58,035 nucleotides of DNA from an uncultured bacterium (GTDB lineage: Bacteria > Hydrothermota > Tepidihabitantia > Tepidihabitantales > JBDRVQ01). The notes below the pieces were generated by a model, which was not told the origin of the DNA, ran no database searches, and saw nothing but the letters and a program-made list of their open reading frames with translations. Location of the stretch: assembly GCA_964425275.1 (NCBI GenBank), contig CAYRLZ010000013.1, positions 1-58,035 of the forward strand. Reading direction: 5' to 3'. The first letter of the stretch is position 1, and each line of letters begins with the position of its first letter. This document shows, one piece after another, positions 3,180 through 57,590 of this stretch. Made by a program: the position numbers and the translations under genes.

Positions 3180-3559
3180 CAACTATTCTATAAAAATTCT
3201 TCAAATAGTCAAGATGGCTTCCCCCTATGGTTTACCCAAAAATTTTAAATATTACCTCATTGACCAATAGATGTTTTTACTTTCTTCTGATTATTTATGC
3301 CAAAATCGTCCTTTTAGCGATTAAAATTTAGGGAAACACTTTGAGCGGATTTTTACTCTATATTTAGATATGGGAAAAAAGCTAATTTTATTAAGTATAG
3401 TTAAATCAATAACTTATGTTTTAGAGATTAACCCTTTCGGTATTTTATCTAATAAGGAGGTAAAAATGAGAGGATAAATAACCAATTAAAAAGACCTAAT
3501 CGCTTTTATCCGCACCAATCCATTTAGCACCGCCGGGGATTTTTCTTTTTGAAGGGGGG

Positions 3560-3810
3560 AGTGCTACAGGGGGTGCTATTCGGGATGGTATTAAATACCC
3601 TATTCTATACCCTATTCTCGGTTCTAAACTCTCGCCTATTCGGTATTCTATTCTCTTGCCTATTGGGAATCCTATTCTCTATCCTACGGAACGTTCTATT
3701 CTCCTTCCTATTGGGTATGCTATTCTCTGTCCTATTGGGAGTGCTATTGGGGGTTCTATTCTCTTTCCTATAAAGAGCCCTATTCAGAATGCTATTATTG
3801 GTTCTATTTC
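3560..3810. repeat. Degenerate 12-bp tandem array (NNNNCTATTNNN), about 20 units
   Basis: CTATT recurs at 12-bp spacing, e.g. accctattctat accctattctcg, tgcctattggga atcctattctct. Confidence 0.85.
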
Positions 3811-9139: not shown

Positions 9140-9417
9140 CCCAAAGGATTAACCAAGTAAGAGATTAAGAAGGAGATTTAGAGAAGGACACAAAGAGCGG
9201 CACAGGGAGAGACAGACCAAGGGATTAAGAAAGGTAAAAGAAAGGTAAAAGAGAGGGCAAGAGAAGGCGACTGGGAAAGGGATTAAGGAAGGGATAGAGT
9301 AAGGGACAGACTAAGAGACCCAGTAAAGCATTAAGTAAGGGGTAGGGTAAGGCATCCAGGGAACGATACCCTAAAAGAAAGGAAAAATCCAATAAGTCCT
9401 GTAAAATCAAAAACTTA
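9140..9417. repeat. Degenerate 12-bp tandem array followed by a 25-bp dyad box
   Basis: aaagggattaag gaagggatagag taagggacagac taagagacccag taaagcattaag taaggggtaggg taaggcatccag, then aaaaatccaa TAAGTCCTGTAAAATCAAAAACTTA. Confidence 0.75.
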
Positions 9418-9505
9418 AAAGCAAAATGACCTGATAAAAAAGTTTCCCAAAATCAAAGTTGCTTAATTTCCGAGAGACAAAACTTAAAGGGATTAGGGAT
9501 TATTT

Positions 9506-16740: not shown

Positions 16741-16830
16741 CGGAGAGGGTGGGATTCGAACCCACGGTCCATCTTTCGATGGACGACCGCTTAGCAAGCG
16801 GGCGCCTTAGACCGACTCGGCCACCTCTCC
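16741..16830 (-). tRNA. tRNA-Ser(GCT)
   Basis: GGAGAGG/CCTCTCC acceptor stem, loop TTGCTAA, long variable arm, GGTTCGAATCC T-arm; CCA not encoded. Confidence 0.95.
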
Positions 16831-16832
16831 GA

Positions 16833-16920
16833 CGGAGGGTGAGGGATTTGAACCCCCATGTTCCCTTTCGGGAACGGCGGATTTCAAGTCCGCTGCCTTA
16901 CCAGTTAGGACTAACCCTCC
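16833..16920 (-). tRNA. tRNA-Ser(TGA)
   Basis: GGAGGGT/ACCCTCC acceptor stem, GCGGA-CTTGAAA-TCCGC anticodon arm, long variable arm, GGTTCAAATCC; CCA not encoded; 2 nt from the next tRNA. Confidence 0.95.
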
Positions 16921-27336: not shown

Positions 27337-28009
27337 CTTCTAAGTAGATGATGCGGTTTGCCATCTTTGCCAGTTCTAAGTTATGGGTGACGACGACAAC
27401 TGTCAAACCCTTTTCGTTTAGGTTAAAGAATATCTCAAAGACCTCACGAGCGGTTTTTGAATCAAGGTTACCGGTCGGCTCATCCGCCAAAAGAAGCAAA
27501 GGGTTATTAACGAGTGCCCGGGCAATTGCTACCCTCTGCATCTCACCACCGGAGAGTTGACTCGGCCGATGCCGAATCTTATTTTCTAAACCCAATAACT
27601 TTAACAGTTCTTGTGCTCTCGCCAGCCGTTTTTTATTCCGGCTGAAAAGTCCGGGAAGTGATACATTCTCTAAGGCGGTGAGGGTGGGTATTAAGAAGAA
27701 CTGCTGAAAGACAAATCCGACGGTATTCCTTCTTATCTTTGTTAAAGTAGAGTCACTCTCCTGAGTCAATTCTCGCCCATCAAGGAAAAACCGACCATGG
27801 GTAAGTCGGTCAATACATCCCAGGATATTAAGAAGTGTTGTCTTGCCAGAACCCGAAGGTCCGACAATTGCTAAGAAATCACCCTTCTTCACCGAAAGGT
27901 CAACTCCTTGTAAGGCGAAGACCTTTTCTTCACCCCTCTTATAGACCTTCACCGCCTCTTTAAGTTGTGCTAACGCGCCGCGCCCGCTTTCGGCAATTTT
28001 ATCATTCAT
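27317..28009 (-). CDS. ABC transporter ATP-binding protein (LolD/MacB type)
   Basis: GPSGSGKT, LSGGEMQRVAIARAL, LADEPTGNLD. Confidence 0.95.
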   Translation of the reverse strand: MNDKIAESGRGALAQLKEAVKVYKRGEEKVFALQGVDLSVKKGDFLAIVGPSGSGKTTLLNILGCIDRLTHGRFFLDGRELTQESDSTLTKIRRNTVGFVFQQFFLIPTLTALENVSLPGLFSRNKKRLARAQELLKLLGLENKIRHRPSQLSGGEMQRVAIARALVNNPLLLLADEPTGNLDSKTAREVFEIFFNLNEKGLTVVVVTHNLELAKMANRIIYLEDGKIKE

Positions 28010-29183
28010 TTCTTACCGCCTCCATTGGAATTGCTCTTGCCGCCCTCAATGCCGGATAAAGGGAAGATAATAAACCAACCGCGGTCACTAATGCCGAGGT
28101 TATTAGAGCCAAGGAGAGACTAGGACGGACGATTCTTGCCATCGGAACGAAACTGACTAAAAATCTTCTTATATAGTTTTCAAATTGCGGCGTGAGGAGA
28201 GAACCATTCAAAAGCCCAAAAGCAACACCGACCGAAATAAGAATCAATGTCTCCAAAAGGACGAGATGGATAATGTCAAAGGAAGAGGCACCGACGCATC
28301 TTATGTAGCCAAACTCCTTTCTCCTCTCAAAGATGGTCATAAGAAAGGTGTTCATTATCGCAAAGATACACATTCCCAAGGCGATTACGACCATTACGAG
28401 CATTATCGCCTTGGTTGAGCCGAAGAAACTTAAAACCCCTTTACTTAAAGTCTCCGAAGGAAGTAGGAAGTATTCGGCGGGCAATACCTGTCGCATCTCT
28501 CTCTTCACCTCCTCCAAGTGAGCGAGAGAGGTCAGTTGGATACCAATCCCGGAGAGTTTCCCTTCTCGGGAGAAGAGTTTTAATAAGACCGAAAGCGGCA
28601 AAAAGAATGTGCCGTCATCTTGGGTATAGGTCGGTTCTAAGATACCAACCACTTCAAATTCCCGATTAAATTGCTCAAAGAAAATCTTATCTCCAATCTC
28701 ACGTTTTTCCAGCCGGGCAATGGTTTGCCCAAGGATAATGGAATTGGTATCCTTAAACCAAGAGCCTTTTAAGCGCCAGTTTGGCCGGATTCGCTCAATC
28801 GCTTCGGTTGCCCCGAAAAATATGTCGGTCCTTGAGCCATCCGGAGTCGTTATCGCAAGAATACTGAACGGCATTATCTCCTTTATATATTTTGCTGACT
28901 TTATCTTTCTTATTGTATCAATAACCCCTGTCCCGACGAACTGCGGACTGGCGCCTCCTTGGACGATTATTGACGCCGCCTCCATTGGACAGCCCTCTTT
29001 TGAGATATAAAGGTGGATACCGCTCTTTTTGACCAGTTCCTCCTCAACCGCCGATTTATAACCCCGGTCTAAGGAGAGGACAGTAAAGACGACAATCGTT
29101 GCCACTACTACACTGAGAATTGTGAGCAGGGTTCGGATTTTTGAACGGAGTAAGTTTTTAAGAGAAAGGCTTATGAAACTCAT
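28002..29183 (-). CDS. ABC transporter permease (MacB/FtsX type)
   Basis: KNLLRSKIRTLLT, large periplasmic domain, ERRKEFG..R.VGA, YPA.RAA...PMEAVR. Confidence 0.93.
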   Translation of the reverse strand: MSFISLSLKNLLRSKIRTLLTILSVVVATIVVFTVLSLDRGYKSAVEEELVKKSGIHLYISKEGCPMEAASIIVQGGASPQFVGTGVIDTIRKIKSAKYIKEIMPFSILAITTPDGSRTDIFFGATEAIERIRPNWRLKGSWFKDTNSIILGQTIARLEKREIGDKIFFEQFNREFEVVGILEPTYTQDDGTFFLPLSVLLKLFSREGKLSGIGIQLTSLAHLEEVKREMRQVLPAEYFLLPSETLSKGVLSFFGSTKAIMLVMVVIALGMCIFAIMNTFLMTIFERRKEFGYIRCVGASSFDIIHLVLLETLILISVGVAFGLLNGSLLTPQFENYIRRFLVSFVPMARIVRPSLSLALITSALVTAVGLLSSLYPALRAARAIPMEAVRNE

Positions 29184-29208
29184 AAAACACCAACCCGTGC
29201 GGCCTCTC

Positions 29209-29616
29209 TCATCTCTCTTTAATTTCCAGACCTAAGAGGATAAGAAATGGCTTTTCCTCTCCACTTACCTTACCATAGACTCTTACCGGGCGTTTCTTTT
29301 TCAGGAGGGTAAGAATCTTCGCCCCAAAGTCGGCAAAGACCTTAATTGAAAATGAACCCTCTTGATAGGTAAATTCACAGCCCGAAGAGCAGAAATAACC
29401 AACCGTTCCTTCCAGTAGAACCTCTTGGTCCTGGTAGGCGAGAGGGTCAACAAGGATTGCTTGAAGGGGAGTAACCGCAAGACCCTTGGGAATTGAGGCG
29501 CCAATTCCCGCAAGGTTTTTCTTCTGAGTTCGGGCCGAGTATCGGAAGACTACTAAAATAACTATTATACCGATAATAAGAGCGACTACCCTTCCCTGAA
29601 ACTTATCCATTTTCAC
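29209..29616 (-). CDS. Membrane-anchored hypothetical protein, OB-fold-like with CxxxC
   Basis: N-terminal TM helix; V.LEG.V..FCSSGCEF ... V.VYG.V. Confidence 0.65.
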   Translation of the reverse strand: MKMDKFQGRVVALIIGIIVILVVFRYSARTQKKNLAGIGASIPKGLAVTPLQAILVDPLAYQDQEVLLEGTVGYFCSSGCEFTYQEGSFSIKVFADFGAKILTLLKKKRPVRVYGKVSGEEKPFLILLGLEIKER

Positions 29617-30185
29617 CTCCCCAGTATTTCTTTAACGATACTTAACACTTCTCTTGGATTTTTCCCCAATAAAACGAAGAGTGGTTCTTTCCCCCACCCT
29701 TCGGTTTCATAAAAGATTTTCGGAATTTGGTTATTAGAGCGGGAAAAAAGGGACTTTATCTTCCATCCCATAGACTTCCTATCTTCCTTCTGTAATTCCT
29801 TTGGTTCTTTTCTTCTATCTATCTTCCCCAGGAAAATCCCTTTCCTTAAACAGTAACTTTTAATCCGGCGTAAGATTTTGTCGTCATACTTAAAATTTAA
29901 TGACGCCCGCAGTCCCTTATCATATTTTGCCACCTCAATTAAAAGACGGGCGAGATGGTCTGAGGCACCAAATTTCACTTTGCCAGCCGCTTTTGGTCTC
30001 CCATCAACCACCGTAATCCTGCCGTCCACTGCGGCCACATCGGTAATCTCCTTTGGATTCTCTCGGGCATAGGCGAAATTCGTCCTCACCTCGGGAATAA
30101 GTTCGGCGAATTCTTTCATCTTTTCTAATTCCTTAACGCCCGCTCTCAATTCCCTTAATATTCGCAAGTCCATCTTTCTTTTCAT
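29613..30185 (-). CDS. Thiamine-phosphate synthase family protein (ThiN-like)
   Basis: LIPEVRTNFAYA, DVAAVDGRI, FGASDHLAR, EP...SMGW and GWGKEP motifs. Confidence 0.88.
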   Translation of the reverse strand: MKRKMDLRILRELRAGVKELEKMKEFAELIPEVRTNFAYARENPKEITDVAAVDGRITVVDGRPKAAGKVKFGASDHLARLLIEVAKYDKGLRASLNFKYDDKILRRIKSYCLRKGIFLGKIDRRKEPKELQKEDRKSMGWKIKSLFSRSNNQIPKIFYETEGWGKEPLFVLLGKNPREVLSIVKEILGR

Positions 30186-31213
30186 TTCCCTAAGGTGCTA
30201 AAATAGGCATTCCAGAAAGGGTCAACTTTGACCGGCGTCAGTTCTTCTCTTCGCCCATCTTTTCGGATAAAAACCCGCTCGCCTTCTTTAATTTCGCCAA
30301 TCACGAATGCCAAGATACCTTCTGCCTGCAAAGAAGAGAGTAAAGAAGGAAGATTCTCTTCGGGCGCAGTGATAATGAGAGTTCCTTCACTTATTGAAAT
30401 TAATGGGTCAATCTGAAAATATTCACAGACCGCCTTCACCTCATCGGGAATCAAAATTTTGTCTTCCCATATCTCAATACCGGTATTTGAGGCATTGGCG
30501 ACTTCGTATAAACCATTTAAGAGACCACCTTCGGTGGCATCGTGCATCGCGTGGGCATATCTGCGAGCAGTGAGGGCCTCTTTAACCACCGTCATCTCAA
30601 AGAAGAGCCTTTTTGCCTTTTCTGTTCTCTCTTTACCTAAACTCTCTACCAATTCTTTCTCGGCCTGTAAGGCTAAAATTCCGGTTGCCTCAATTGCCGG
30701 ACCTTTCGTTATTATTACTCTATCCCCTACTTGCGCATTGGAGGGCGGCGTCAATTCCTCTCTTTTCCCAAATCCCCAGACCGTGCAGCCACCATTTAAG
30801 GGATAGGAAATTCCCGGATAAACACCAGTATGACCACCGACAATCGCAATACCCAATTTTTCACACTCCTGATGAATCTGCTGCCAGAGGAAACTAAACT
30901 CTTCGGTCTTTGTGCCCGGTGGTAAGAGAAGGCATATCGTCATAAACTCCGGCTTTACCCCCAGAACCGCCACATCACTGGCACAGATGTGAACAATTGA
31001 CCAGCCAAAATAAGGGATTAAAACCGGCATCCCAAAGGTCGGGTCTTCGGCAACCACCATAACCTTCTCATCTAAGTCAATCACTCCGGCATCAACCCCA
31101 TGTTGTGGCTTTATCAAAACCCTTTCATCCGCTCTCCCTAAATTAGGGAATATTATCGTCTCAAATATCTTTCGGTCTAATTTACCGATTTCCGGCAAAG
31201 GAAGGTCTTTCAT
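30182..31213 (-). CDS. AIR synthase/HypE/ThiL superfamily protein
   Basis: GVDAG, EDP, SDVA, IVGGHT, MHDATEGG, ISEGTL; SD AGGAGG before ATG 31213. Confidence 0.88.
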   Translation of the reverse strand: MKDLPLPEIGKLDRKIFETIIFPNLGRADERVLIKPQHGVDAGVIDLDEKVMVVAEDPTFGMPVLIPYFGWSIVHICASDVAVLGVKPEFMTICLLLPPGTKTEEFSFLWQQIHQECEKLGIAIVGGHTGVYPGISYPLNGGCTVWGFGKREELTPPSNAQVGDRVIITKGPAIEATGILALQAEKELVESLGKERTEKAKRLFFEMTVVKEALTARRYAHAMHDATEGGLLNGLYEVANASNTGIEIWEDKILIPDEVKAVCEYFQIDPLISISEGTLIITAPEENLPSLLSSLQAEGILAFVIGEIKEGERVFIRKDGRREELTPVKVDPFWNAYFSTLGK

Positions 31214-31229
31214 CGTTCCTCCTATGATT

Positions 31230-31319
31230 ATGCCAGCCCAAGTAAACCGGCTCCCTGCCCTCAAATATCATTTTAGTCCAATTAACCGGGCATCGGTTAT
31301 GAGCCGGTGGGGCTGGCAT
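31230..31319 (-). ncRNA. Candidate structured 5' leader RNA, unassigned family
   Basis: 10-bp and 8-bp nested perfect stems, a 6-bp hairpin and a possible UGCCC/GGGCA pseudoknot; ends 6 nt before the SD. Confidence 0.5.
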
Positions 31320-31347
31320 CAAATCTTATCTTTCCCATCTTAATTAT

Positions 31348-31374
31348 GACGCAAAAAGAGCCCAAAAAGTTACG
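31348..31374 (-). promoter_or_regulatory. ECF sigma promoter (GTAAC-N17-CGTC)
   Basis: CGTAACTTTTTGGGCTCTTTTTGCGTCATAATTAAGATG, near-identical to the 32397-32434 site. Confidence 0.8.
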
Positions 31375-31464
31375 CAGGTGCTAATCACCAAATAATTGGT
31401 CTTCCTAATTTAGCAAAGAGACTTAGGAAGCCGTTGGTTAGAGAAAACTTTCTTAATGAGAATC

Positions 31465-32382
31465 CTAAGAATTCAAGAGAGGGGATTTATAAAGAGAGAG
31501 GAGTTCAAAGATATACCCTAAGATTAAAGATAGGATGCTTATAACTGTTAGATAGAATATGAGAATTTTTGTCCCGAACTCCTTTCTTATGACCAAGAGG
31601 GCACCCCAGGCGGTAATTGGACCTAAGATTAAAAGTGCCATTGCCGCACCGATATTCATACCCCGAAATATTAAGGCGTGGACCAATGGCACACTGCTCG
31701 TTGAGCAGATATACATTATTATCCCAAAGATTAGGGCGAAGATATAACCGCCGGGACCGGAGAGATAACTTTTGATAAAAATCCCGATTGGGACAACAGT
31801 AGCGACAACAGCGGCTAAAAATATACCGATTAAAGTCTCCTTACCAATATCTTTTGGCATTTCAATGAAGGCAAATTTGAGGGTGGAGCGGAGACGATTG
31901 AACAGGTTTACTTTGTGTAATTGGCAGGAAGAGACGGCAGAACAGTGGGGGCAAGGCTTTTCTTCTATAATCCGGGGCTGGAATTTTATCTGGTTGCCCA
32001 AGATACCTAAGATAAGACCTAAGGTGATGACGGATAAAAATATATACAGGGTAAAACCAAGACCCAAGAGGCGATAGGTTACCAATAAGGCGCTTACTGA
32101 TGTTGCCGGGGTAGCGGCTAAAAAGGCTAAGACCGGACCAAGACGCGCCCCCTTGCGATAGAAGGTTATCGCCATGGGTAAAGAACCAAAACAGCATACC
32201 GGGAGGCAAGTTCCGACAATTGTGGCGTAGAAGATGGGTCTTATCCCACCGCCGCCGAGATTTTTTTCAACCCAGTCCGAAGGGACGAATTCGTGGATGA
32301 GACCAGAAATTAAAAATCCAACGGCAAGCACGGGTAGGATTTCCAGGAGGTAATGGAAAAAGATGGCGATTAGTTGTTCCAT
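31465..32382 (-). CDS. Permease, DUF318/ArsP-like
   Basis: GTCLPVCCFG, AFLAATP, MYICS, MALLILGP; Cys/His-rich central loop CPHC...C.LH. Confidence 0.88.
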   Translation of the reverse strand: MEQLIAIFFHYLLEILPVLAVGFLISGLIHEFVPSDWVEKNLGGGGIRPIFYATIVGTCLPVCCFGSLPMAITFYRKGARLGPVLAFLAATPATSVSALLVTYRLLGLGFTLYIFLSVITLGLILGILGNQIKFQPRIIEEKPCPHCSAVSSCQLHKVNLFNRLRSTLKFAFIEMPKDIGKETLIGIFLAAVVATVVPIGIFIKSYLSGPGGYIFALIFGIIMYICSTSSVPLVHALIFRGMNIGAAMALLILGPITAWGALLVIRKEFGTKILIFYLTVISILSLILGYIFELLSLYKSPLLNS

Positions 32383-32408
32383 TATCTATTCTAACTCATC
32401 TTAATTAT

Positions 32409-32434
32409 GACGCAAAAGAACGCAAAAAGTTACG
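32409..32434 (-). promoter_or_regulatory. ECF sigma promoter (GTAAC-N16-CGTC)
   Basis: CGTAACTTTTTGCGTTCTTTTGCGTCATAATTAAGATG upstream of the permease. Confidence 0.8.
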
Positions 32435-32489
32435 GTATTAATTACCAGTTCCAAAGTTCTTTCCGAAAGCCTCGGCAGAGGAATCCTCG

Positions 32490-33272
32490 CTATTCTTTCA
32501 GGCATGGGCAGGGAGATTGTTTGATACCGGATTTGGGGTTTAATTTCTCTTCAATACAGCAATTTCTCTCAAGACATTGATTGATTGCCTTTTGGATTAA
32601 GGTCGTATCACAACCGCAAGCGGATACCTTTATTCTTTCTAGGATGCTTTTATGCCCTTGATTGACCCTCTGGATTTTCCCTAATAACTCAGAGCACTCT
32701 TCTTTCGGAAGTGAATCGGAGCAGTGAATCGCCAATTCCACCTCACCTAACATCGCACTCAATAGACCGGGATGAATCCGCTTCTGCCTTTCAAATGCCC
32801 AGAGCAATTCATTTGCCCTCCTATCCGCAAAAGTTAGATGAAGAAAGGCATTGCTCTTCTGGTCAACAGTCAAGGTATGCTGAACCTTTTCTGCAAACCG
32901 TTTAACCGGATATAGAATATGCCCGGGCATACTGCGCGCACTGAAAGAGAGCGTTGTCCAGCCAACAAAGATAACCAATAATATTAATGAGACCACTCGC
33001 ACCGGTGCCAGTGCCAATACCCTTTGCAGTCTAAATCGGAACGATGGCGCCCTTTGTTCGGCAATCACTTTTTCAACTTCCCAGAAGAAAGCACTCATCA
33101 CCTCCGGGGAAGGTTCGGGCTTTGGCAAACCCTTAATTTTAACTGACAAGCGCAAAATGGGTTCTAACTCCTGGGAAAATTCCGGATATTCCCTTAAACA
33201 ATCCTCAACACTTCTTCCTTGCTCAATTTTGGTTAATAATTTATCTAAGACCTCTTCAATCTTTAATCTCAT
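32490..33272 (-). CDS. Putative anti-sigma factor (DUF5667-like) with Cys-rich C-terminus
   Basis: G.SVEDCL..YPE...ELEP.L N-terminus, one TM helix, SMPG..LYPVKR..E, A..RA.EL; overlaps the sigma gene. Confidence 0.8.
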   Translation of the reverse strand: MRLKIEEVLDKLLTKIEQGRSVEDCLREYPEFSQELEPILRLSVKIKGLPKPEPSPEVMSAFFWEVEKVIAEQRAPSFRFRLQRVLALAPVRVVSLILLVIFVGWTTLSFSARSMPGHILYPVKRFAEKVQHTLTVDQKSNAFLHLTFADRRANELLWAFERQKRIHPGLLSAMLGEVELAIHCSDSLPKEECSELLGKIQRVNQGHKSILERIKVSACGCDTTLIQKAINQCLERNCCIEEKLNPKSGIKQSPCPCLKE

Positions 33273-33843
33273 AACCCTTTTTTCTAAAATATTCCCTCAA
33301 TGCCTGTAATGCCCGAAACTGCAGGGCCTTGACCGCCCCCACTCGTTTCCCCATAATCCTACTCACCTCTTCATTAGAATATCCCTGAATAAAACGGAGG
33401 TTTATAACCTCTGCCTGTTCTCTAGTTAGGCAACACATTGCCTTCTTGAGGATAGACGGATTTAACCATTCTACATTCTCTTGCTTTACTTCTCGCTCAT
33501 CCGGAATATCCTCTTCCAAATCATCAATTTTCACTTCTTTCCTGACCCCCTGCCGGCGATAAAAATCAATCACCATATTGGAAGCAATCCGATAGACCCA
33601 GTGCTTAAAATTCTTTTTTTGCCCAGGCAAATTTTTTAGTATCTTCAAAATCACCGCGCCGGTCAAATCCTCAGCATCTTCTTTTCTTTCAACCCGATAA
33701 AAGATATAACGGTAAACCTTAGGATAAAGATACTTAAAGAGCCGGGTTAAGGCATCCTTATCACCAACCTTTGCCGCTTTAACCACCTTTAATAGTTCAT
33801 CGTTATTTAGTTCTTCATTTAATATAGACGAATTAGCCGGCAT
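33256..33843 (-). CDS. ECF RNA polymerase sigma factor
   Basis: GDKDA, DAEDL, WVYRIASN..ID..R (region 2), LT.EQ.EVI.LRF..G.S..EV..IMG...GAVK (region 4); ATG 33843 preferred. Confidence 0.94.
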   Translation of the reverse strand: MPANSSILNEELNNDELLKVVKAAKVGDKDALTRLFKYLYPKVYRYIFYRVERKEDAEDLTGAVILKILKNLPGQKKNFKHWVYRIASNMVIDFYRRQGVRKEVKIDDLEEDIPDEREVKQENVEWLNPSILKKAMCCLTREQAEVINLRFIQGYSNEEVSRIMGKRVGAVKALQFRALQALREYFRKKGYEIKD

Positions 33844-33852
33844 AAAGTTACG
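33827..33852 (-). promoter_or_regulatory. Third ECF promoter copy overlapping the sigma gene start (autoregulation candidate)
   Basis: CGTAACTTTATGCCGGCTAATTCGTCTATATT, i.e. GTAAC-N16-CGTC. Confidence 0.65.
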
Positions 33853-34496
33853 GATAATATTAAATGCTTTAAGGCTAAAAGTCAACCTGGACGCCGCTCC
33901 GCGTTACCCTTTGTTTATAGAACTTACCGCTCACCGACCTTGCCAACTCTAAAACCAGTTATAGAAGAATAAGTATCCTAAAAATAAGACTAAATTAAAC
34001 ACCGCCGAAGAGAGATTAAGGTCTTGTCAACTAAACCTTATGAAATTCCTCAGATACTATCTTCATTATCTCCCTTAAAATCTCCCTATCGCAACCCTCT
34101 CTTAAAATTCCTTTACTGTCCTCAAATAAGCATAAACCAGACATAACTCATCCCTTTCTTCTGAAATAAAAATTCTTTTACCATCTTGATGACCCTATCC
34201 TTTATCTCCTCACCCTTCGCATATCTCTCCACTGTCTCTTTCTGCCTTGTTTCTTGGAAAGGTTTCTGTCCTGCCAATCTCTTAACCTCCCTTCTAAAGG
34301 CATCACCTTTATCATCAGCGGTAATTTTAGCCCCTTTTCCTTATATCCCTTCTGAATTTCCTTCAACTTATTTACATTACTTCTATCCTCTCTTGTTTTT
34401 TCCAATCTCTGAAAGTATTCCTCGGCAAAGGCAAGAGAGTTAGATAAGATAATCCTATCCAAATTTTGCCTCCTGTTAATTACCCGAACAAAAGTT

Positions 34497-34830
34497 CTAT
34501 AACTATTGTTATATAACAATAGTTATAGTTTTCAAAGCCCGATTTTTGGTCCTAAGTCTTTGGTTTGCCGTAACTTATTGGATTTTTTAAGGAAGATAGG
34601 GGGTAGCCCTCTGGGTCGTCTTCTTGGTCTATTTTTTAACCTAATCCTTGGTCTAATTGAAAGCCTAATTTTCGGTCTAATTCTCTAACTATTTCTCTTT
34701 CTAACCGAAGGGCTAATTCTCTGTCTAATTGTTAGCGTAATTCTTTAAGTAATGGAGTTAGTAATTCTCGGTCTAATTCTCTGCCTAATTCTCAGTCTAA
34801 TTGAGCGTCTAATTCTCTAAGTAGTAGGAC
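34497..34830 (+). repeat. Composite element copy A: 32-bp perfect palindrome + 25-bp dyad box + core + about 17 degenerate 12-bp units (NNNCTAATTNNN)
   Basis: Gap-free similarity of about 34500-34655 to the reverse complement of about 57435-57590, including 39 identical bp. Confidence 0.9.
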
Positions 34831-35191
34831 CAAATACCCTATTATTTTTGCGACAGGTGGATAGTCTTATCAGAGGTCGCAATTGTTTTTTAAGTTATTG
34901 AAAAGTAAAGACTTAAAAAGAAGATAAAAGATTAGGGATTATATTAGCCTGTAAGACTTTTATAAGGTGATTAGGGTTGTTTTTTCTTTACGGTTTCCCT
35001 ACTAAATTTAAGCCATTGTAAATCAATAACTTATTTTATAAAAGATGGTTGTAAGGTTTGGTATAAGTAATGCATTAGTAAGGGTTTAGATGGTGCTGAA
35101 ATGAAAGGCAGGAAGGAATTTCAGAGAAAATGCGGCTCTCATCCGTGGGCCTATCCGGGGAATGAAAGGAGGCAACTAAAAATGGGAGGGA

Positions 35192-36715
35192 GTGATGGAG
35201 GAGAATAAGCAATCTTTATCTCTCTTCTTTTCTACGGAGAATATCGCTTTCCATTCTCTATTTTATCTCTTTTCATCGGTTGGTCCAGCGCTCTTCCAGA
35301 TTTTTCTCGTCTTTTTCTTAGCCCGATATATTTCACCGGCGAAATTTGGTAATTTTATGCTTGTTTATTCAGCCCTCACTCTTCTTGTTCTAACGGTAAC
35401 CGCTTGGATTGATGGCTCAAATTTAAGGTTTTATGCGGTATATGAAGGGACGAAAGATTATCAGAAATTTTTTAGCACGGTCTTCGCTTCACTTTTCCTA
35501 TTACTCTTCGCCGTAAGTGGTCTCCTTCTTTTATTGGCAGTTATTCTTAAAGAAAGATTAACGTCAGGAATGTGGAGTATGATTAGCGCGGGCATTTTGG
35601 CAATGCCATTTTATGGTATTATATTTTCGGGGAGTGTCTTTTTACAATCCGCGGTCCGACCAAGGGCGTATGCCTTTCTCAGATTAGCATTTTTTCTTTT
35701 GAGTTTTTTACTTGGTATATTTTTTATCTTGCGATTTAACTATAACCCGAATGGTATCTTTTTTGCCTGGATAGTAGCCGGTGTGATATTGTTGCCCTTT
35801 CTTTTGAAAACGGTCTCCTTCGGTCAGAATTTTCGGATTAAGGAGATAAAAATGGATTTACTTCGGGAAATTTTTATCTATGGCGCGCCGTTCATCGCAA
35901 CGAAGATTTGTTGGCTTCTTCCGGGAAATATTGAGCGGTATCTATTAAGGATATTTAAGGGGGCGAGTGAAGTGGGGCTATATTCTACGGGATGGGCACT
36001 TTCTAATAAGGCGCTTCTTTTTTTCTCTTTCTTAACGGCGGCGACTTATCCTTTGGTGTGTAAATGTTATGAAGAGGAAGGGAAGGATTCCGTGCCGGGG
36101 TTTTTAAGAGGATTGGTGAGGATTTACTTTCTCTTTTCCTTTCCATTAGTAATACTCTTATCCGGATTAGCCAGAGATATTTTCACTCTCTTCTTAAATT
36201 CGGCTTATCAATCTGGGTATATTTTACTGCCGTTTATTACTCTGGGCACCTTCTTTTTCGGGTTAGGTCAGTATACCTCTAAGGGGCTGATCTTAGAAAA
36301 GAAGACCAACACTTATCTCTGGGTAGTGGCTTCCTTCGCCGCACTTAACCTATTATTGAATTTTCTTCTTATTCCTTTCTTCGGGATGCTTGGGGCAAGT
36401 ATTGCCTATCTCTTAGCTAATTTCTACTTTGCGGTCGCGGTGAAAGTAAAGAGTGATTACTTTTTACCCTTTGCCCTACCTTGGAAATCCCTGAACCGGA
36501 TTATCACCTCCGCAATCTTTTCTGCCGTGGTGATTTTCCTTTTGCATCAATTACTGCCCACTAAGATTCTCTTCTTTATCGTTAAGAGTTTAATTGGTCT
36601 TGCGACCTATCTTTTTGCCCTCTTGGTTTTAGGTGAGATAAGAACCAGAAATGTCCTGCGGGTTTTCCGCTACATCGGAAGGGGACTGGCCTATGGCTAT
36701 AGCAAAAAGACGTAA
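35192..36715 (+). CDS. wzx: Polysaccharide flippase (Wzx/MOP family)
   Basis: Many TM helices; SPAKFG, IERYLL..F.G..EVGLYS, NLLLNFLLIP.FG..GA. Confidence 0.88.
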   Translation: MMEENKQSLSLFFSTENIAFHSLFYLFSSVGPALFQIFLVFFLARYISPAKFGNFMLVYSALTLLVLTVTAWIDGSNLRFYAVYEGTKDYQKFFSTVFASLFLLLFAVSGLLLLLAVILKERLTSGMWSMISAGILAMPFYGIIFSGSVFLQSAVRPRAYAFLRLAFFLLSFLLGIFFILRFNYNPNGIFFAWIVAGVILLPFLLKTVSFGQNFRIKEIKMDLLREIFIYGAPFIATKICWLLPGNIERYLLRIFKGASEVGLYSTGWALSNKALLFFSFLTAATYPLVCKCYEEEGKDSVPGFLRGLVRIYFLFSFPLVILLSGLARDIFTLFLNSAYQSGYILLPFITLGTFFFGLGQYTSKGLILEKKTNTYLWVVASFAALNLLLNFLLIPFFGMLGASIAYLLANFYFAVAVKVKSDYFLPFALPWKSLNRIITSAIFSAVVIFLLHQLLPTKILFFIVKSLIGLATYLFALLVLGEIRTRNVLRVFRYIGRGLAYGYSKKT

Positions 36716-37427
36716 GGTTAATCGGGCGATTATCCTGGCCGCGGGAAATTCCCGTCGGCTCTTTCCCTTAACCAAGACCTGCCCGAAATGTCTCCTTGGG
36801 ATTAATGGCCAGACACTTTTAGAAAGAACCCTCTCGGCTTTGGTTGAGAGTGATATTAAAGAAGTAATCATTATCACCGGGCACGGAAGATTTCGGGTTG
36901 AAAAGGCCGTGGCGGAATTTAATTATTCCGGTTGGGTGAGGTTTTTATTTAATCCCTTCTATGCGGTCACGAATAATCTCGTCTCCTTAGGATTGGCCCG
37001 ACCTCTAATGGATGACGGTTTTCTTTTGATCAATTCTGATCTTTATTTTGATAACCGAATATTGTTTAAGTTAACCGAGGCAGAAGGTGATTGTCTGGTT
37101 ATTGAGCGGCAAAAGCCCCTTGGCGAAGAAGAGATGAAAGTGAAGATTGAAGACGGGCGGATAGTAGATATCGGCAAGGATTTGTTGCCTTCGGTGGCAA
37201 GTGGTGAGTATATCGGGATGGCAAAGTTCTTAGCTCGTGGTGGGAGTTTATTGAAGGAGAAGTTGACCGAACATTTAGCAAGAAATGGTTATCAAGAATT
37301 TTATGAGTCGGCAATCAAGGACCTATTCGTTCCCATCCCGATAAAGCCAGTCTTTACCGATGGGTTGCCCTGGATTGAGATTGATACCCCAGAGGATTTA
37401 GCAAAGGCACAAGACCTTGGGATATGA
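36693..37427 (+). CDS. Phosphocholine-cytidylyltransferase-like NTP transferase
   Basis: AIILAAG.SRRL..LT...PKCLL, NN..SL, NSD, EEMKV, GEYIG, W.EIDT.EDL. Confidence 0.88.
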   Translation: MAIAKRRKVNRAIILAAGNSRRLFPLTKTCPKCLLGINGQTLLERTLSALVESDIKEVIIITGHGRFRVEKAVAEFNYSGWVRFLFNPFYAVTNNLVSLGLARPLMDDGFLLINSDLYFDNRILFKLTEAEGDCLVIERQKPLGEEEMKVKIEDGRIVDIGKDLLPSVASGEYIGMAKFLARGGSLLKEKLTEHLARNGYQEFYESAIKDLFVPIPIKPVFTDGLPWIEIDTPEDLAKAQDLGI

Positions 37428-37445
37428 GAAAATGGAGGTAGGTTT

Positions 37446-38555
37446 ATGGCTTTCTTAGGTAGAGGGATTGAGGTTCCACTCTTTCTCCGGATTAAAAAAG
37501 GGATACTGTCAGAAATTGATGGAGTGGTAAAAGAGGAAAATCTCTATTTCCGAAAGCCATTGATTGTTGCCGATGAACTGACCTGGCGGATTGCCGGAGA
37601 GAAGGTGGCTAACTCTTTTGGCGAGGCCTCTTCTATAATAATTGAGGATAATCGTTGGGAGGAAGTCGTCCGGACAAAGAGAGTGATTGAGGAGAAGGGG
37701 GTTGATTTAGTGATTGGGGTCGGGGGAGGAAAGGCGATTGATATTGGGAAATATACCTCTTTCCTCTCCCGGATAAATTTCATCTCTTGCCCAACCGCTC
37801 CGGCTCATGACGGAATATCTTCGCCGGTAGCGGTAATCCGAAAGGAAGGTGAGACACTGAGCCTTGGGGCGAAGATGCCAATGGGGATTATTGTTGATTT
37901 GGATATAATTAAAAACGCCCCATTATTAACCATACTCTCCGGCATCGGTGATTTGGTTTCTAACCTCTCGGCGGTTGAGGATTGGCAATTAGCCGTGAGG
38001 CGAAAAAAAGAGCGGTTGGATACCTTTGCTTATATCCTTTCAAAACAGGCAGCGCTTGCCTTTATGAGTAACGGTCATTTTACCTCTCACACCGATACCG
38101 CCTTCTTAGAGCGGCTTTTGGAGGGTTTGGTGATGAGTGGTATCGCGATGGAGATTACCGGCTCTTCCCGGCCGTGTAGCGGTGCCGAACACCTGATCAG
38201 TCATGCCTTGGATAGAATCCTTCCGCAACCTTATCCCCACGGGATTCAGGTTGGTTTGGCCACCCTCTTTACTAATGCCCTGCGGGGAAATTCCTGGAAG
38301 AAGATAAGAAATTTTTTCCTCAAGGTTGGATTTCCAACTTCCCCGGACCTGATTGGTATTAGGAAAGAAGATTTTTTATCGGCCTGTGCAATGGGACCAA
38401 AGATGCGCAAAGGACGATGGACGATTCTTGATGAAAAAGCGATTGAAGACTTCCCGAGAGTCTATGAAGAGGTTTATGAGGCGGTTAGACCGTTTGCCTA
38501 CGGCACGGCACCGCAGAACATAAAGAAGAGAGATAAAATACCGATTACCAGTTAA
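37446..38555 (+). CDS. Glycerol-1-phosphate dehydrogenase-like protein (EgsA/AraM/Gtp1 family)
   Basis: GVGGGKAIDIGK, PTAPAHDGISSP, SG.GD..SN, SSRPCSGAEHLISHA, HG.QVG. Confidence 0.9.
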   Translation: MAFLGRGIEVPLFLRIKKGILSEIDGVVKEENLYFRKPLIVADELTWRIAGEKVANSFGEASSIIIEDNRWEEVVRTKRVIEEKGVDLVIGVGGGKAIDIGKYTSFLSRINFISCPTAPAHDGISSPVAVIRKEGETLSLGAKMPMGIIVDLDIIKNAPLLTILSGIGDLVSNLSAVEDWQLAVRRKKERLDTFAYILSKQAALAFMSNGHFTSHTDTAFLERLLEGLVMSGIAMEITGSSRPCSGAEHLISHALDRILPQPYPHGIQVGLATLFTNALRGNSWKKIRNFFLKVGFPTSPDLIGIRKEDFLSACAMGPKMRKGRWTILDEKAIEDFPRVYEEVYEAVRPFAYGTAPQNIKKRDKIPITS

Positions 38556-38556
38556 A

Positions 38557-39267
38557 ATGGATTACCCTTCGTTATTGGTTGATAATGACTTGGTAAAACA
38601 GAGGCGGCAAATCGCCCAGAAACCAAAAGACCAGGAAGAGTTTTGGGCTTTCTATGTATTACGACCGTTCTCAATTTATTTTTCCTTTATTCTGCAAAGA
38701 CTCCATCCCAACTTGTTAACGATTACTGGGATATTCCTGATGATTTTGGCTTCGGGCTTTTTCTTGTCCGGCCAATTACTCTTCGGCTGCTTGGTTTTTC
38801 AGGCGGCTTATTTATTTGACTGTCTGGATGGCGAAGTCGCCCGGCTTAATCAAAAGTTCTCCCGCTACGGTAAATCCCTTGACTTTCTATTACATGCAAT
38901 AGATGTCCCGTTATTATGGTCTTTCACCTTAGGGATAAGAAAAAGTCTTCTAATACCTTATTATCAAATGGTAATCATTTTTTTACTGGCCTTAGTTAAT
39001 TTTGTTGGTCCGCGACTTTATCATTACTTAAAAAGGACCAATGGTTTTGATTTAGCCTCACAGTTAAGGCGGAAGAATTTTATATATAACTTCCTCGCTT
39101 TTCTCTTCTCATCGCTCGGGATATACACCATTGCGCTACCGTTCATAATCTTTCTGCCCGGTTTCTTGCCCACCCTCATTCTTATATGTCTGAGCGGTTC
39201 CTTAGCCAAGACCTTTGCCCGATTAATCATTGGTCATAAGAATTTTTTAAGGAGGCCGGGTGATTAA
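38557..39267 (+). CDS. CDP-alcohol phosphatidyltransferase family protein
   Basis: HPNLLT and DCLDGEVAR...S.YG..LD...H..D signature. Confidence 0.9.
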   Translation: MDYPSLLVDNDLVKQRRQIAQKPKDQEEFWAFYVLRPFSIYFSFILQRLHPNLLTITGIFLMILASGFFLSGQLLFGCLVFQAAYLFDCLDGEVARLNQKFSRYGKSLDFLLHAIDVPLLWSFTLGIRKSLLIPYYQMVIIFLLALVNFVGPRLYHYLKRTNGFDLASQLRRKNFIYNFLAFLFSSLGIYTIALPFIIFLPGFLPTLILICLSGSLAKTFARLIIGHKNFLRRPGD

Positions 39268-40600
39268 CGGAAAAGTAAATTTTTGGCGGACAAGAAGTTT
39301 GCCTCTCCCCTATTTACTTTATCTCTTAGCCATCGCCCTGGCCGTCGCTTTGTATACCCATTTTCCAATTACACTTTTTCTTGTCGTTTTTTGCGGAATA
39401 ACCGGACTTTGCCTCTTTAAGCCAGATTGGGGATTATCTTTATGGGCTGGGCTTTTAGGGATTCAGTTAATGACCGTTGGTTCTTTGGGGATTAATATTG
39501 CCCCTTCTGATTTATTTCTAATTCCTCTGACCCTGGTGGTTAGCGGTCAAATCCTCACCGGCAAACGGGTTTATAAAAAGAGCAATTTAGCCATCTGGAT
39601 TTTTCTCCTCTTAATTAGCCTCACCTTAGGGCTTGGTGTATTTTATCGGTCTTTTGGTTATCTATCTTCTTATACCCTGTTGAATAAATATCTCGGTCTT
39701 ATCAGTTTGGCGCTTGCCTTTTTTATTGTCAAGCACTTCGTCAATGATGACGAAGAGTTAAATAAATTAATTAACGTCTTTTTTGTTTCCGGTTCCTTAA
39801 TTAACCTCTTGGTCTTAAGTCTTTATCTCCTGAGCGTTAGCGGACGGGTGCATTTCCTTTCCGATACTATAAGGGAAGGCGGCAGATTAAGGGGTTTTCT
39901 CTGTGACCCCAATGCCTATGCCGGATATGTTTCTATCCTATTACTTTTCTCACTCTCTTTTCTTCTAACTGGTGAGCGGAAAGGACCTCTTTTATTCTCT
40001 TTATTTAATACCCTTCTTTTGACCTTGTCACTTTTCTTCACCTTTTCCCGAACCGGCTGGCTCGGATTTCTCATTGGTCTTGGGGTTATTTTGTTTCTTA
40101 GCAAAAAAATAAAACCGGCCTTATTATATTCGGCGCTACCTTTTCTCAGTTTTTTAGTCTTAATGCTCATTCTGCCCCACTTTGGACTGAGGCCAGACTT
40201 TTTTATCTTCCGCAAATGGACCTACTATGAGCGCCTGGATTTAATGAGTAAGGGGTGGGATTTATATAAGGAGAATTATTTATTAGGGATTGGGCTGGGA
40301 ACCTTTCGGCAACTCTTCCCAACAATAATTCACAACTCATTTGTCTGGATATTGGTGGAAACCGGACCTTTGGGCTTGATTGCCTTAATTGGACTCTTTA
40401 TCCAGGCGATTTCTGATTTGCTAAGATATGATGTTGGTAAATTGCGTGTGCCGGTGCTTAGTGGTCTTTTCGCTTATATCGGGTTAGCGATGGGGATTGA
40501 AGCCCTTTATCAGCGACCGCTCTGGCTTTTTCTCGCCTTGGGCTCGGCACTCAGTCAAATTAGATTGGAGCAAAAAGAGAAAGGAAAAGATAGCCAATGA
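39260..40600 (+). CDS. O-antigen polymerase/ligase family protein (Wzy_C)
   Basis: RL.G...DPN, TFSRTGW, R......GIGLG.F, HNS. Confidence 0.85.
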   Translation: MINGKVNFWRTRSLPLPYLLYLLAIALAVALYTHFPITLFLVVFCGITGLCLFKPDWGLSLWAGLLGIQLMTVGSLGINIAPSDLFLIPLTLVVSGQILTGKRVYKKSNLAIWIFLLLISLTLGLGVFYRSFGYLSSYTLLNKYLGLISLALAFFIVKHFVNDDEELNKLINVFFVSGSLINLLVLSLYLLSVSGRVHFLSDTIREGGRLRGFLCDPNAYAGYVSILLLFSLSFLLTGERKGPLLFSLFNTLLLTLSLFFTFSRTGWLGFLIGLGVILFLSKKIKPALLYSALPFLSFLVLMLILPHFGLRPDFFIFRKWTYYERLDLMSKGWDLYKENYLLGIGLGTFRQLFPTIIHNSFVWILVETGPLGLIALIGLFIQAISDLLRYDVGKLRVPVLSGLFAYIGLAMGIEALYQRPLWLFLALGSALSQIRLEQKEKGKDSQ

Positions 40601-41754
40601 GGGTATTACAGATAATTGGCAATTCTCGTTTTGGTGGTGGAGTTTATTATGTGCTATCAATTGCCCGCCAGTTAAGTAAAGAGGGGCAGGAGATCTTCAT
40701 CTTAGTGGAAAATCCGGTTTGTGCCCAATATTTCCGGGAGGCTGGTTTTAAGGTTCTCTCAACGAATGCCTTCCGACGAGAGATCTCGCCCTATTATGAC
40801 TTAAAGGCATTGGGCAGGCTGATTTATCTGATTAACCGCCTAAGACCGGATTTAATCCATACCCACACCTCAAAAGGTGGATTCATCGGTCGGTTAGCGG
40901 CAAGGATTGCCAAAGCCAAAAAGGTCATTCATACCGTTCATGGGTTCGCCTTCCATGAATTCTCTTCTCCCTTTGCCCAGGCATTTTATTCCTGGTTGGA
41001 GAGATATGCCAGCCGGTTTTGTCAACGGTTGATATTTGTGAATAAAAAGGATTGCGATTGCGCCCGGGAGAAAAAAATCGGCGATGAGCGAAAGAGAAGA
41101 ATAGTTTATAATGGGATTAATTATCGGGCGATTGAAAAGATTTCTCCTAATTACCAATTGAAGAATGAACTGCGTCTTCCGGATGATGCCTTTCTTTTAA
41201 CTTTTACCGGAAGGCTCTCCGCGCAAAAAAATCCTAAGGTTTTAATTGAAGGTCTGCCCAATATCTTAAAAGATTACCCCAATACCTACCTCCTCTTAAT
41301 CGGTGATGACCTGGGCTTGGAAAAAGAGTTAAGGGTAAAGGCAAAGCGATTAAAGGTTTATGATAATGTGAGGTTTTTGGGGTTTCGTAAGGATTGTGTT
41401 GCCTGTCTTAAATCATCCGATTGCTTTGTCCTGCCTTCTTTATGGGAAGGTCTTTCTATCTCCCTTTTAGAGGCAATGGCTTGTGGACTACCTTGCCTCG
41501 TTTCGGATATTAAAGGGAATAATGAGGTAATTGTTGATGGGAAGAATGGTTTTTTATTTCCCCCGAAGGCGCCTGATTGTTTTGCGGAAAAGGTGAAACA
41601 ATTGATTGCCTCAAAAGAACTGCGGAGGCGATTAGGTGAAGAGGCAAAAAGAACGGTTAGAGAATTATTCTCCGAGGAGATATTCTTAAGGGAGACGATG
41701 AAGATTTATCAGGAATGTGGGCTTGTGAGCCGCTTTACCCAAGGAGTATCTTAA
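40597..41754 (+). CDS. Glycosyltransferase family 4
   Basis: HTHTSKGG, HTVHG, GRL..QKN, PSLWEGL...LLEAMACG. Confidence 0.93.
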   Translation: MRVLQIIGNSRFGGGVYYVLSIARQLSKEGQEIFILVENPVCAQYFREAGFKVLSTNAFRREISPYYDLKALGRLIYLINRLRPDLIHTHTSKGGFIGRLAARIAKAKKVIHTVHGFAFHEFSSPFAQAFYSWLERYASRFCQRLIFVNKKDCDCAREKKIGDERKRRIVYNGINYRAIEKISPNYQLKNELRLPDDAFLLTFTGRLSAQKNPKVLIEGLPNILKDYPNTYLLLIGDDLGLEKELRVKAKRLKVYDNVRFLGFRKDCVACLKSSDCFVLPSLWEGLSISLLEAMACGLPCLVSDIKGNNEVIVDGKNGFLFPPKAPDCFAEKVKQLIASKELRRRLGEEAKRTVRELFSEEIFLRETMKIYQECGLVSRFTQGVS

Positions 41755-57249: not shown

Positions 57250-57590
57250 TATTAGACCGTCAATTAGGCTTTGAATTAGATTCTCAATTAGACCAAGAAT
57301 TAGACCGAGAATTAGCCAAAGAATTAGCCCCTTTGTTAACCAGATGATTAGTCAGAGGATTAGAAACTTAATTAGCCTTTCGGCTAGTTAAAGAATTAGA
57401 AAGAGAATTAGACCTTCAATTAGTCAGAGGATTAGGCAAAGAATTAGGTTATAAACTAGACCAAGAAGGCGACCCAGAGGGCTACCCCCTATCTTCCTTA
57501 AAAAATCCCCTAAGCCCTGTAAAATCAAAGACTTAGTGGTAAAAAAGGGGCTTTGAAGACTATAACTATAGTTATATAACTATAGTTATG
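57250..57590 (-). repeat. Composite element copy B (inverted relative to copy A): about 18 12-bp units + core + dyad box + 28-bp perfect palindrome
   Basis: AATTAG every 12 bp (tagaccgtcaat taggctttgaat tagattctcaat ...), TAAGCCCTGTAAAATCAAAGACTTA at 57511-57535, (ATAACTATAGTTAT)x2 at 57562-57589. Confidence 0.9.

Follow-up and report, generated by a model that had tools for sequence, protein, structure and literature searches.

Structure of the element and of its inverted copy

The window, that is, the whole stretch of 58,035 nt that was analysed (contig C13), contains an element built of four parts in a fixed order: a palindrome specific to its subfamily, a conserved leader some 70 nt long, a head rich in G (TAGGGGG) and then an array of 12-nt units, 16-20 of them in the family as a whole. 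A second copy of the same subfamily, A, lies on the opposite strand, and two elements of other types are found elsewhere in the window. Next to the palindrome of the first copy are the decayed remains of a protein-coding gene and of its promoter (Table 1).

Table 1. Elements and associated gene remnants in the window
Feature	Position	Strand	Remarks
B'-type element	3392..3810	+	CCTATT-type units, different leader (...GAAGGGGGGAGTGCTACAGGGGGTGCTATT...)
Subfamily C element	9140..9444	-	same leader, pyrimidine-rich CCCTTAC-type units; nhmmer match 9426-9351
Decayed partner-gene remnant	34037..34447	-	tblastn with C43 paralogue; about residues 131-297, frameshifts and stops
Remnant of partner-gene promoter	34452..34479	-	TTAACA, 16 nt, TAGGAT; promoter scan 9/12
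Palindrome (operator-like, specific to subfamily A)	34497..34528		14 pairs, 4-nt centre
Conserved leader	34529..34595	+	TAAGTCTTTGATTT...ACTTAT.GGATTTTT block, slightly diverged here (3 mismatches)
Array head ATAGGGGGTAGCCC...	34596..34623	+	G-rich, small G/C hairpin
Array, 16 units x 12 nt	34624..34818	+	core CTAATT plus half-variable 6-mer
Second A copy: array	57251..57464	-	abuts TTGACT-17-TATAAT promoter (57241-57213) of next gene
Second A copy: palindrome, leader, head	57465..57589	-	nhmmer match 57561-57460

A first-pass annotation of this DNA had described the two A copies as an inverted, gap-free pair with a shared 39-mer, and this is what we find. In an alignment to the reverse complement, the arms at 34499-34815 and 57273-57589 are 77% complementary over 317 nt without a gap, and the 39-mer is present in a single copy per strand, at 34580 and, as its reverse complement, at 57470. 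Part by part, the identity between the two copies is 0.91 in the palindrome, 0.83 in the leader and 0.72 in the array. With Tandem Repeats Finder the regions 34640-34817 and 57251-57447 both have periods of 12, 24 and 48, the last two being weaker superperiods. The annotation had also stated that the period is kept while the content of the units diverges freely after the first one or two. The former is correct but the latter is not: over the 16 units of the pair, the number of matching positions out of 12 is 8.6 for units of the same index but 7.25 where the index differs, and the two arrays are homologous in register through to their ends.

The palindromes are near-perfect. Their sequence is CTATAAC..GTTATAG in subfamily A, with the variant AATATTAG..CTAATATT, AATATTACTG.CAGTAATATT in subfamily B, and GTTTCC....GGAAAC, with variants, in subfamily C. 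The best conserved part of the element is the core of the leader, TAAGTCTTTGATTT.ACA..ACTTAT.GGATTTTT; in subfamily C the variability is 0.03-0.04 in the leader versus 0.19-0.26 in the array. Read on the opposite strand, this core is a putative match to the IHF consensus. Each unit of the array combines six or seven nearly fixed core bases with five or six half-variable ones, the variability across the phases of the 12-mer ranging from 0.06 to 0.39. The variable half is dominated by a few words, CTC, CTT, GAG and GAA, followed by GGT, TAA, TGC and AGC, and given this and the homology in register the term 'free spacer sequence' used of it earlier was an overstatement. The phase, on the other hand, is preserved as proposed, with gap runs in the arrays of exactly 12 nt in 25 of 30 cases in subfamily A and in seven of nine in subfamily B. 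We looked by eye for co-variation between the palindrome half-site and the core of the array and saw none. In a consensus fold of 17 A copies there is almost no structure on either strand, and no conserved terminator was found 3' of the arrays. An Rfam search of the window yields two tRNAs only; the best sub-threshold match in 34400-34900 scores 19 bits against a threshold of 80, and no Rfam family matches the element.

A dispersed family with at least four subfamilies

The window belongs to the genome of a WOR-3 bacterium from a hot spring (G000 in our sample; 1.82 Mb in 100 contigs, 43% G+C, 95.9% complete), and the two DNA runs that contain it both carry the label hot springs metagenome. 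By blastn this genome has 17 full-length copies of subfamily A (the CTAATT type), which are 72-90% identical over about 320 nt. An nhmmer profile of the leader matches at 65 places in the genome. A 28-nt leader pattern has 54 matches in the genome and the reversed pattern, used as a control, has none, which puts the family far beyond chance. In a lag-12 identity scan, which is independent of the leader, we identified 102 periodic regions that together make up 19,530 nt, or 1.07% of the genome. The leader-plus-array architecture first noticed in the window is real and, as had been suggested, dispersed across the genome.

Of these periodic regions, 55 lie behind a match to the leader and 47 do not. 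The latter include the B' type, represented in the window by the element at 3392-3810, and a GATAT type, and the scan revealed many more copies of the B'-type head that have no match to the A-derived leader profile. The elements that share the leader but have other unit cores fall into B (CCTATT; 14 classed), C (CCCTTAC-like and pyrimidine-rich; 21) and D (1), so that there are at least four subfamilies in the genome. The two regions of the window that had been named as diverged relatives of the inverted pair, 9140-9417 and 3392-3810, are real, but their unit cores are different and they are members of other subfamilies. The subfamily C element has an exact match to the leader pattern at 9384-9411, and in the B'-type element the 12-nt period extends over 3555-3666 in the lag-12 scan and over 3589-3796 according to Tandem Repeats Finder.

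A DNA-binding protein gene beside the palindrome

The start of an intact 304-codon gene on contig C43 lies at about 50 nt from an A-copy palindrome, and the gene is oriented divergently from it. The only Pfam domain in its product is HTH_3 (residues 10-63, E 1.5e-9). Two further intact paralogues were found by tblastn in the same genome, one on C24 (84% identity) and one on C87 (50%, beside a B copy), and each of the three starts 58-80 nt from the leader match of its element, again divergently. Gene fragments on C13, C21, C30, C47, C72 and C81 lie 35-106 nt from elements and are always divergent, and on C20 an 89-codon version consisting of the HTH only is preceded by a C-type palindrome. In all, the genome has three intact copies of this partner gene and at least seven remnants. 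The search for a co-occurring DNA-binding protein that had been proposed from the window has thus led to an XRE-HTH gene directly beside the palindrome. We conclude that the element was originally the partner of this neighbouring gene and that most of its copies in the genome are now gene-less.

The remnant in the window is an example of such loss. It is 90% identical to the C43 paralogue at 34307-34134 (aa 183-240), and the profile match has one TGA, one TAG and one TAA inside it. The remnant promoter next to it is homologous to that of an intact locus (L013), TTGACC-16-TAGAAT (10/12), which ends 6 nt before the ATG, and the partner mRNA is therefore probably leaderless. The -35 element of the same promoter also accounts for a GTCAAT that is conserved immediately to the left of most A copies.

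AlphaFold models of the full protein (pLDDT 84.8) and of its C-terminal domain alone (84.6) predict an HTH followed by two four-helix bundles. The HTH has a structural match with Z 16.0 to 5woq. In a Foldseek search with the model only the HTH domain was matched, and a sequence search of the PDB returned only designed helical proteins at E > 0.3 and thus no relation to any solved chain. The Protein Atlas gave no usable match for the partner protein.

Conservation of the module in related genomes

With a profile built from nine full-length homologues, whose identity to the C43 protein is 19-36%, we found full-length homologues in 20 of the 21 genomes that represent families f1, f3, f4 and f5 of the order. 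Elsewhere in the phylum sample only the HTH domain was matched, and a match of any kind at 1e-10 is found in 62 of 272 genomes. The number of homologues per genome ranges from one or two in f4 up to at least nine in f3. Upstream of them the same order recurs, that is, palindrome, leader, TAGGGGG head and an array with a 12- or 24-nt period, and the TAGGGGG-type head is present in modules of all four families. The module of gene plus element is conserved in these four families.

The sequences that fill this order vary. The palindrome is at the same place in every subfamily and every related genome, each time with a different sequence, and it differs from paralogue to paralogue; one genome, G009, has at least five kinds. 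The unit sequences are completely different between families, with the 12- or 24-nt phase retained. Arrays in G005 and G009 have G-rich units, for example GGGAGCAGACTC, and one type of f4 module has an AT-rich array with a 24-nt period. A second f4 type is array-less and has instead a conserved tail of about 45 nt that ends in a small hairpin and a T-run. DNA of the A type is found only in G000, G001 and G003, three of the 41 genomes, and the leader pattern, so frequent in G000, has 17 matches in G001 and none or one each in G002 and G003. Matches to this pattern in four f4 genomes, with two or three mismatches and upstream of a kinase gene, were set aside as possibly due to chance, because the DNA is AT-rich and the control pattern also matched once in G006.

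A proposed regulated repeat RNA

The reading we prefer, with a probability of about 0.4, is that of a back-to-back promoter module in which a palindrome-bound protein would control the transcription of a repeat RNA. The anatomy, the size of the family, the gene linkage, the conservation across four families and the lack of coding constraint are observed; the operator function, the transcription of the array and the decoy role are proposed. The gene linkage, the conservation, the non-coding nature of the array and its lack of an Rfam match all speak for this reading. The palindrome would lie between two back-to-back promoters, one for the leaderless partner mRNA and the other, the leader, facing the array, which starts at a fixed distance from the leader and approximately where transcription would begin. 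As an operator the palindrome may bind a dimer of the partner protein. The array would be the transcribed payload, a long and largely unstructured non-coding RNA of some 16-20 phased 12-nt modules, and this repeat RNA may serve as a multivalent decoy or scaffold for some factor. In the genome studied here the module would have multiplied and the gene would have been lost from most copies, leaving about 100 orphan arrays that may answer in trans to the few remaining proteins by way of their subfamily-specific palindromes.

Several features of the related modules are consistent with such a role. In f3 the leader reads TTGATT-16-TAATAT and the head of the array follows about 8 nt further on. The distance from the TTGATT or leader core to the TAGGG head, about 36-38 nt, is conserved in f1, f3 and f4. 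It is because the promoter-like leader faces the array, at a fixed distance from its head, that we rank transcription slightly above a role of the DNA itself. In G009 one type of array is found beside three different palindromes and one palindrome beside two types of array, an uncoupling that fits an exchangeable regulator input joined to an RNA output. The array-less f4 modules look like genes for a short RNA with a weak terminator.

Other observations speak against an RNA. A -10 hexamer is unrecognisable in the leaders of G000 and G001 (f1), and promoter scans gave none in the plus orientation within the leader. The arrays have no conserved terminator, and in 18 of 41 scorable contexts the gene downstream is oriented towards them, so that an unterminated transcript would run antisense into that gene. 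A simple decoy RNA would have no need of strict phase. The strand composition of the arrays also flips by lineage, being pyrimidine-rich in G000, G-rich in G005 and G009 and AT-rich in f4. CsrA was absent in a search of G000, and we know of no candidate RNA-binding partner for an RNA of this kind.

A possible phased platform on DNA

The main alternative, which we hold to be somewhat less probable, is that the array acts as DNA, as a loading platform on which an HTH dimer would nucleate at the palindrome and further protomers would polymerise, one per 12 bp, wrapping the DNA. Polymerisation would take place via the two four-helix bundles, and the approximately 100 copies would be chromosomal organising or silencing sites. 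By its HTH_3 domain the partner is a DNA-binding protein, and phase is kept in the absence of coding constraint, most gap runs in subfamilies A and B being of exactly 12 nt. Three f4 orthologues of the array have no indels in 178 nt despite 35-62 substitutions (20-35%), which points in the same direction. In its layout the module also resembles, by analogy, the iteron and centromere cassettes of plasmids, in which direct repeats are likewise combined with an inverted-repeat operator, an IHF-like box and the gene of the binding protein itself. There are features that this platform would leave unexplained or that speak against it: the unit cores are unlike the palindrome half-sites, and palindrome and array types are uncoupled in G009; it does not account for the constant distance between the promoter-like leader and the head of the array; and 12 bp is not the helical repeat of B-DNA.

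The predicted structure of the partner bears on the same question. When the model of the C-terminal domain was compared with 48,161 chains, the four best matches were all capsid proteins from filamentous viruses of archaea, namely 3fbz (Z 12.3, 115 residues aligned), 6wq0 (11.2), 3f2e (9.3) and 3fbl (9.2), the best unrelated chain having 8.7. The chain 3f2e aligns to the first bundle and the other three to the second. Dimers of these capsid proteins wrap DNA in the A form, 12 bp to each repeat (PMC5517147). The four-helix bundles of the major capsid proteins of Rudiviridae and Lipothrixviridae are thus the best match of the C-terminal halves of the modelled partner, but for helical bundles the tool advises caution below a Z of about 13, and values of 9-12 are within the range that such bundles reach by chance. 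Against a capsid-like fold, too, Foldseek matched only the HTH, and the PDB sequence search found no relation to a solved chain. The capsid proteins lack an HTH, which the partner has, and show no sequence preference in binding DNA; they have no sequence similarity to the partner. We regard the capsid-like fold suggested by the model as a lead rather than a finding.

A more specific form of the platform, which we think unlikely, is a sequence-programmed bacterial nucleoprotein filament in which an HTH anchor and two capsid-like bundles would assemble on a 12-bp-phased track, nucleating at the palindrome. If this were true, the two bundles would be a built-in 'dimer' of the rod-shaped-virus capsid fold, and the approximately 100 tracks, on average one per 18 kb, would be loading sites that organise, protect or silence the DNA of a thermophile.

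Spread of the elements

We consider it improbable that the element is mainly a selfish repeat of the MITE, BOX or Correia kind, non-autonomous and mobile or spread by recombination, whose features are ancestral leftovers with no present function. Its manner of dispersal does have much in common with such repeats. The repeated unit, about 300 nt long, has sharp ends, and its flanks vary from copy to copy. Each of the four kinds of intergenic context is represented (13, 10, 8 and 10 of 41 scorable elements), B-then-C tandems are found at eight loci or more, many copies are at contig ends and, as noted above, copy number is very uneven among relatives. The two copies that were tested, on C53 and C97, lie at synteny breaks with their flanks on different contigs in G001, G002 and G003, and no empty site for either was found in these three genomes. 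However, of the terminal inverted repeats, target-site duplication and cognate transposase that characterise MITEs and IS-derived elements, the first are missing, the palindrome being at one end only, and no candidate for the last was found among the families searched for. A recombinase or reverse transcriptase had been suggested as a possible partner, and our searches of this 95.9% complete genome for RVT_1, Y1_Tnp and TnpB zinc-ribbon domains found none. Within subfamilies the leader is far better conserved than the array, and it is nearly as well kept between families whose proteins are about 30% identical, which argues for selection on it.

BOX, Correia/NEMIS, REP/BIME and the cyanobacterial STRR are intergenic modular repeats with tens to hundreds of copies in which one module varies in count. 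To our knowledge, these repeats lack a 12-nt phased array placed after a conserved leader, and they lack a cognate regulator gene conserved in several families of one order.

Absence of coding constraint in the arrays

A protein-coding array was rejected, in agreement with the first-pass annotation, because the frames lack starts and often contain stops and the orthologues are free of codon-position bias; that it encodes small hydrophobic peptides with a four-residue repeat (LILG, PILx, PLLx), with the HTH protein as their receptor or regulator in the manner of Rgg/SHP, is very improbable. The plus frame of the TTG in TTGATT does have the fewest stops per copy over 79 codons (3.29 in A, 0.15 in B and 0.86 in C), while the other plus frames carry 2.9-15. 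Low stop counts in one frame are expected where a stop-free 12-mer is repeated, and the reverse strand behaves alike; the openness of the frame in subfamily B is due to a T or C fixed at phase 8 of the unit. In subfamily A the frame is open from the TTG in only six of 17 copies, the other 11 being shifted or meeting a stop within 11 codons, and at the fourth 'codon' of the units TAA ranks second in frequency among the triplets. The best frame in the arrays of G005 and G009 is stopped in seven of 13 cases, five of the six open frames have their first start codon at codon 31-77 or none at all, and the best reverse frames are roughly equally open.

The comparison of orthologues is consistent with this. 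In the three orthologous f4 arrays the sites that differ, among 178 without gaps, are spread evenly over the codon positions (22, 22 and 18; 14, 10 and 11; 24, 19 and 15), and synonymous versus non-synonymous differences number 3-7 versus 19-39 in every frame. Subfamily C does have a higher variability at third positions (0.147, 0.154, 0.212), but the excess is absent in A (0.205, 0.157, 0.218) and in B (0.186, 0.158, 0.145). The frame is also shifted by 1 nt relative to the conserved head between f1 and f4. In favour of a coding reading, the three array-less f4 modules can be read by eye as ORFs of 29-32 codons.

With about 300 aa, an N-terminal XRE HTH, an all-helical remainder and a divergent gene, the partner recalls by analogy the receptors of RRNPP systems (Rgg, ComR, PlcR, PrgX). 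It shares with them the N-terminal XRE HTH. The intact short pro-peptide gene that lies beside such receptors is not found here, given the early breaks in 11 of the 17 A copies and the unconstrained orthologues. Outside the HTH, where RRNPP receptors have a C-terminal TPR-like domain that binds the peptide, the structural matches to ComR, PlcR, PrgX and Rgg have an rmsd of 11.8-22 A, and when the C-terminal domain was searched alone all four were outside the best 50 structural matches.

Comparison with known systems

A literature search found no description of such elements, and the earlier remark that they do not belong to a described family agrees with both Rfam and the literature searched. 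The described arrays that come nearest in form are TIGR arrays, whose 36-nt unit holds a pair of alternating repeats of 8-12 nt and a pair of 9-nt spacers, and whose partner has a Nop domain (PMC12045711). They too are long arrays of very short units in which conserved and variable parts alternate, and are non-coding and linked to a neighbouring protein gene. They are transcribed, whereas transcription of the arrays described here is inferred. They also differ in their unit, which is 12 nt here with half-variable bases drawn from a few words, in their partner, here an XRE-HTH protein, and in their distribution, here about 100 dispersed copies. The Nop domain (PF01798) had no match in G000 in a search in which the controls responded, although a very divergent Nop could escape the Pfam model. 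CRISPR arrays have repeats of 25-36 nt with unique spacers of similar size, in contrast to the 12-nt units found here.

Among plasmid cassettes, that of KfrA of plasmid RA3 has an operator of five 9-bp repeats around the -10 element (PMC7783346). The two have in common a gene for a mostly alpha-helical HTH protein beside its own promoter, an inverted-repeat operator and short direct repeats, with a putative IHF-like box between; here, however, there are 16-20 repeats of 12 bp beyond a 70-nt leader, with a core unrelated to the palindrome, and about 100 chromosomal orphans. ParR-parC and iteron origins are similar autoregulated repeat cassettes, and with these we compare the layout only. CsrB and RsmZ are decoy RNAs of the regulator-sRNA type with a body of many short motif copies, GGA motifs in hairpin loops whose partner is CsrA or RsmA. 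The module resembles them in its divergent regulator gene and in a body made of a repeated short motif, and differs from them in having no CsrA, a strict 12-nt phase, motifs outside hairpin loops and no terminator. None of the systems compared combines a paralogue-specific palindrome, a leader, a 12-nt phased array and a private HTH protein.

About 1% of a small, streamlined genome is devoted to this one family of phased 12-nt arrays, and in one branch of the uncultured WOR-3 lineage the module has long been kept while the sequence of its unit has been wholly replaced. If either of the two leading readings is true, the module would be a new class of repeat-based module in bacteria. It could be a repeat RNA served by a regulator family of its own, or a track of DNA that fixes the register in which a protein polymerises.

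The arrays also have practical consequences: genomes of this kind assemble with breaks at them, and they can be misread by gene callers as hydrophobic ORFs, the reading frame staying open over 90-120 codons in several C and B copies. When contigs of two DNA runs were compared over 28000-41000 of the window, the only differences at the element were contig breaks and differences derived from paralogues.

Possible duplication, and placement, of subfamily A modules

Five subfamily A copies in the source genome, G000, have ahead of them a second copy of the leader that has no array (Table). These additional leaders continue into a remnant of the partner gene promoter, an arrangement that points to the module having been duplicated, either nested or in tandem. 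For two A copies (loci L028 and L029, on contigs C53 and C97) the left and right neighbour genes are on separate contigs in all three related genomes, G001, G002 and G003, and these copies therefore lie at synteny breakpoints. Downstream of the second A copy in the window, a near-consensus promoter begins 10 nt past the last unit, and the G001 arrays L002 and L008 are likewise followed by similar promoters.

Most A copies have a small GAAA-loop hairpin at the same column, where it breaks the CTAATT register of the array. Its pairing is preserved in variants such as TACCC...GGGTA.

Table. Location of module-associated and other features
Feature	Location	Strand	Details
Partner gene promoter/start region	L013 1467-1503 (G000 contig C43)		Counterpart in window: 34452-34479
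Array-less second leader copies	G000: C24 7506-7579; C26 15269-15349; C27 300-362; C56 20858-20917; C95 2561-2628		
Small hairpin, GAAA loop	Window 57373-57386		TAGCC GAAA GGCTA; mid-array of A copies
Promoter for downstream gene	Window 57213-57241		TTGACT-17-TATAAT; near-consensus, 11/12
C-type palindrome, TTGACA promoter and HTH-only version of partner protein	G000 contig C20, ~2290-2650		Protein of 89 codons
Two adjacent tRNA genes	Window 16741-16920	minus	Rfam, 57.7 and 49.9 bits
Two ORFs directly left of remnant partner gene	Window 32490-33885	minus	

Partner gene promoter and a possible subfamily C regulator

In the intact partner gene (locus L013, contig C43), the -10 hexamer ends 6 nt upstream of the ATG, and the mRNA is therefore probably leaderless; a GGAGG resembling a ribosome site falls within the spacer of the promoter. 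The HTH-only version of the partner protein on contig C20 has on its opposite side a C-type array that is purine-rich and in reverse orientation. This protein may be the sole surviving regulator for about 21 or more C copies.

Reading frames in leaders and arrays

Array-less modules of f4, another family of the same order, have a conserved CTATACCACCTT motif downstream of the leader (L016, L019 and L059). These three modules can be read from the leader TTG as ORFs of 29-32 codons, each ending in a proline/tryptophan-rich tail, in a comparison of three close relatives only, a sampling at which coding and RNA conservation are indistinguishable. When the subfamily C arrays of G000 are read in the TTG frame, third-position variability is 0.20-0.23 versus 0.12-0.16, and is raised in all four of the unit ‘codons’. 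This excess is absent from subfamilies A and B and from the f4 orthologues.

Other genes in the window

By eye, the translations of the two ORFs beside the remnant partner gene resemble a sigma factor of the ECF type and the anti-sigma factor that goes with it.
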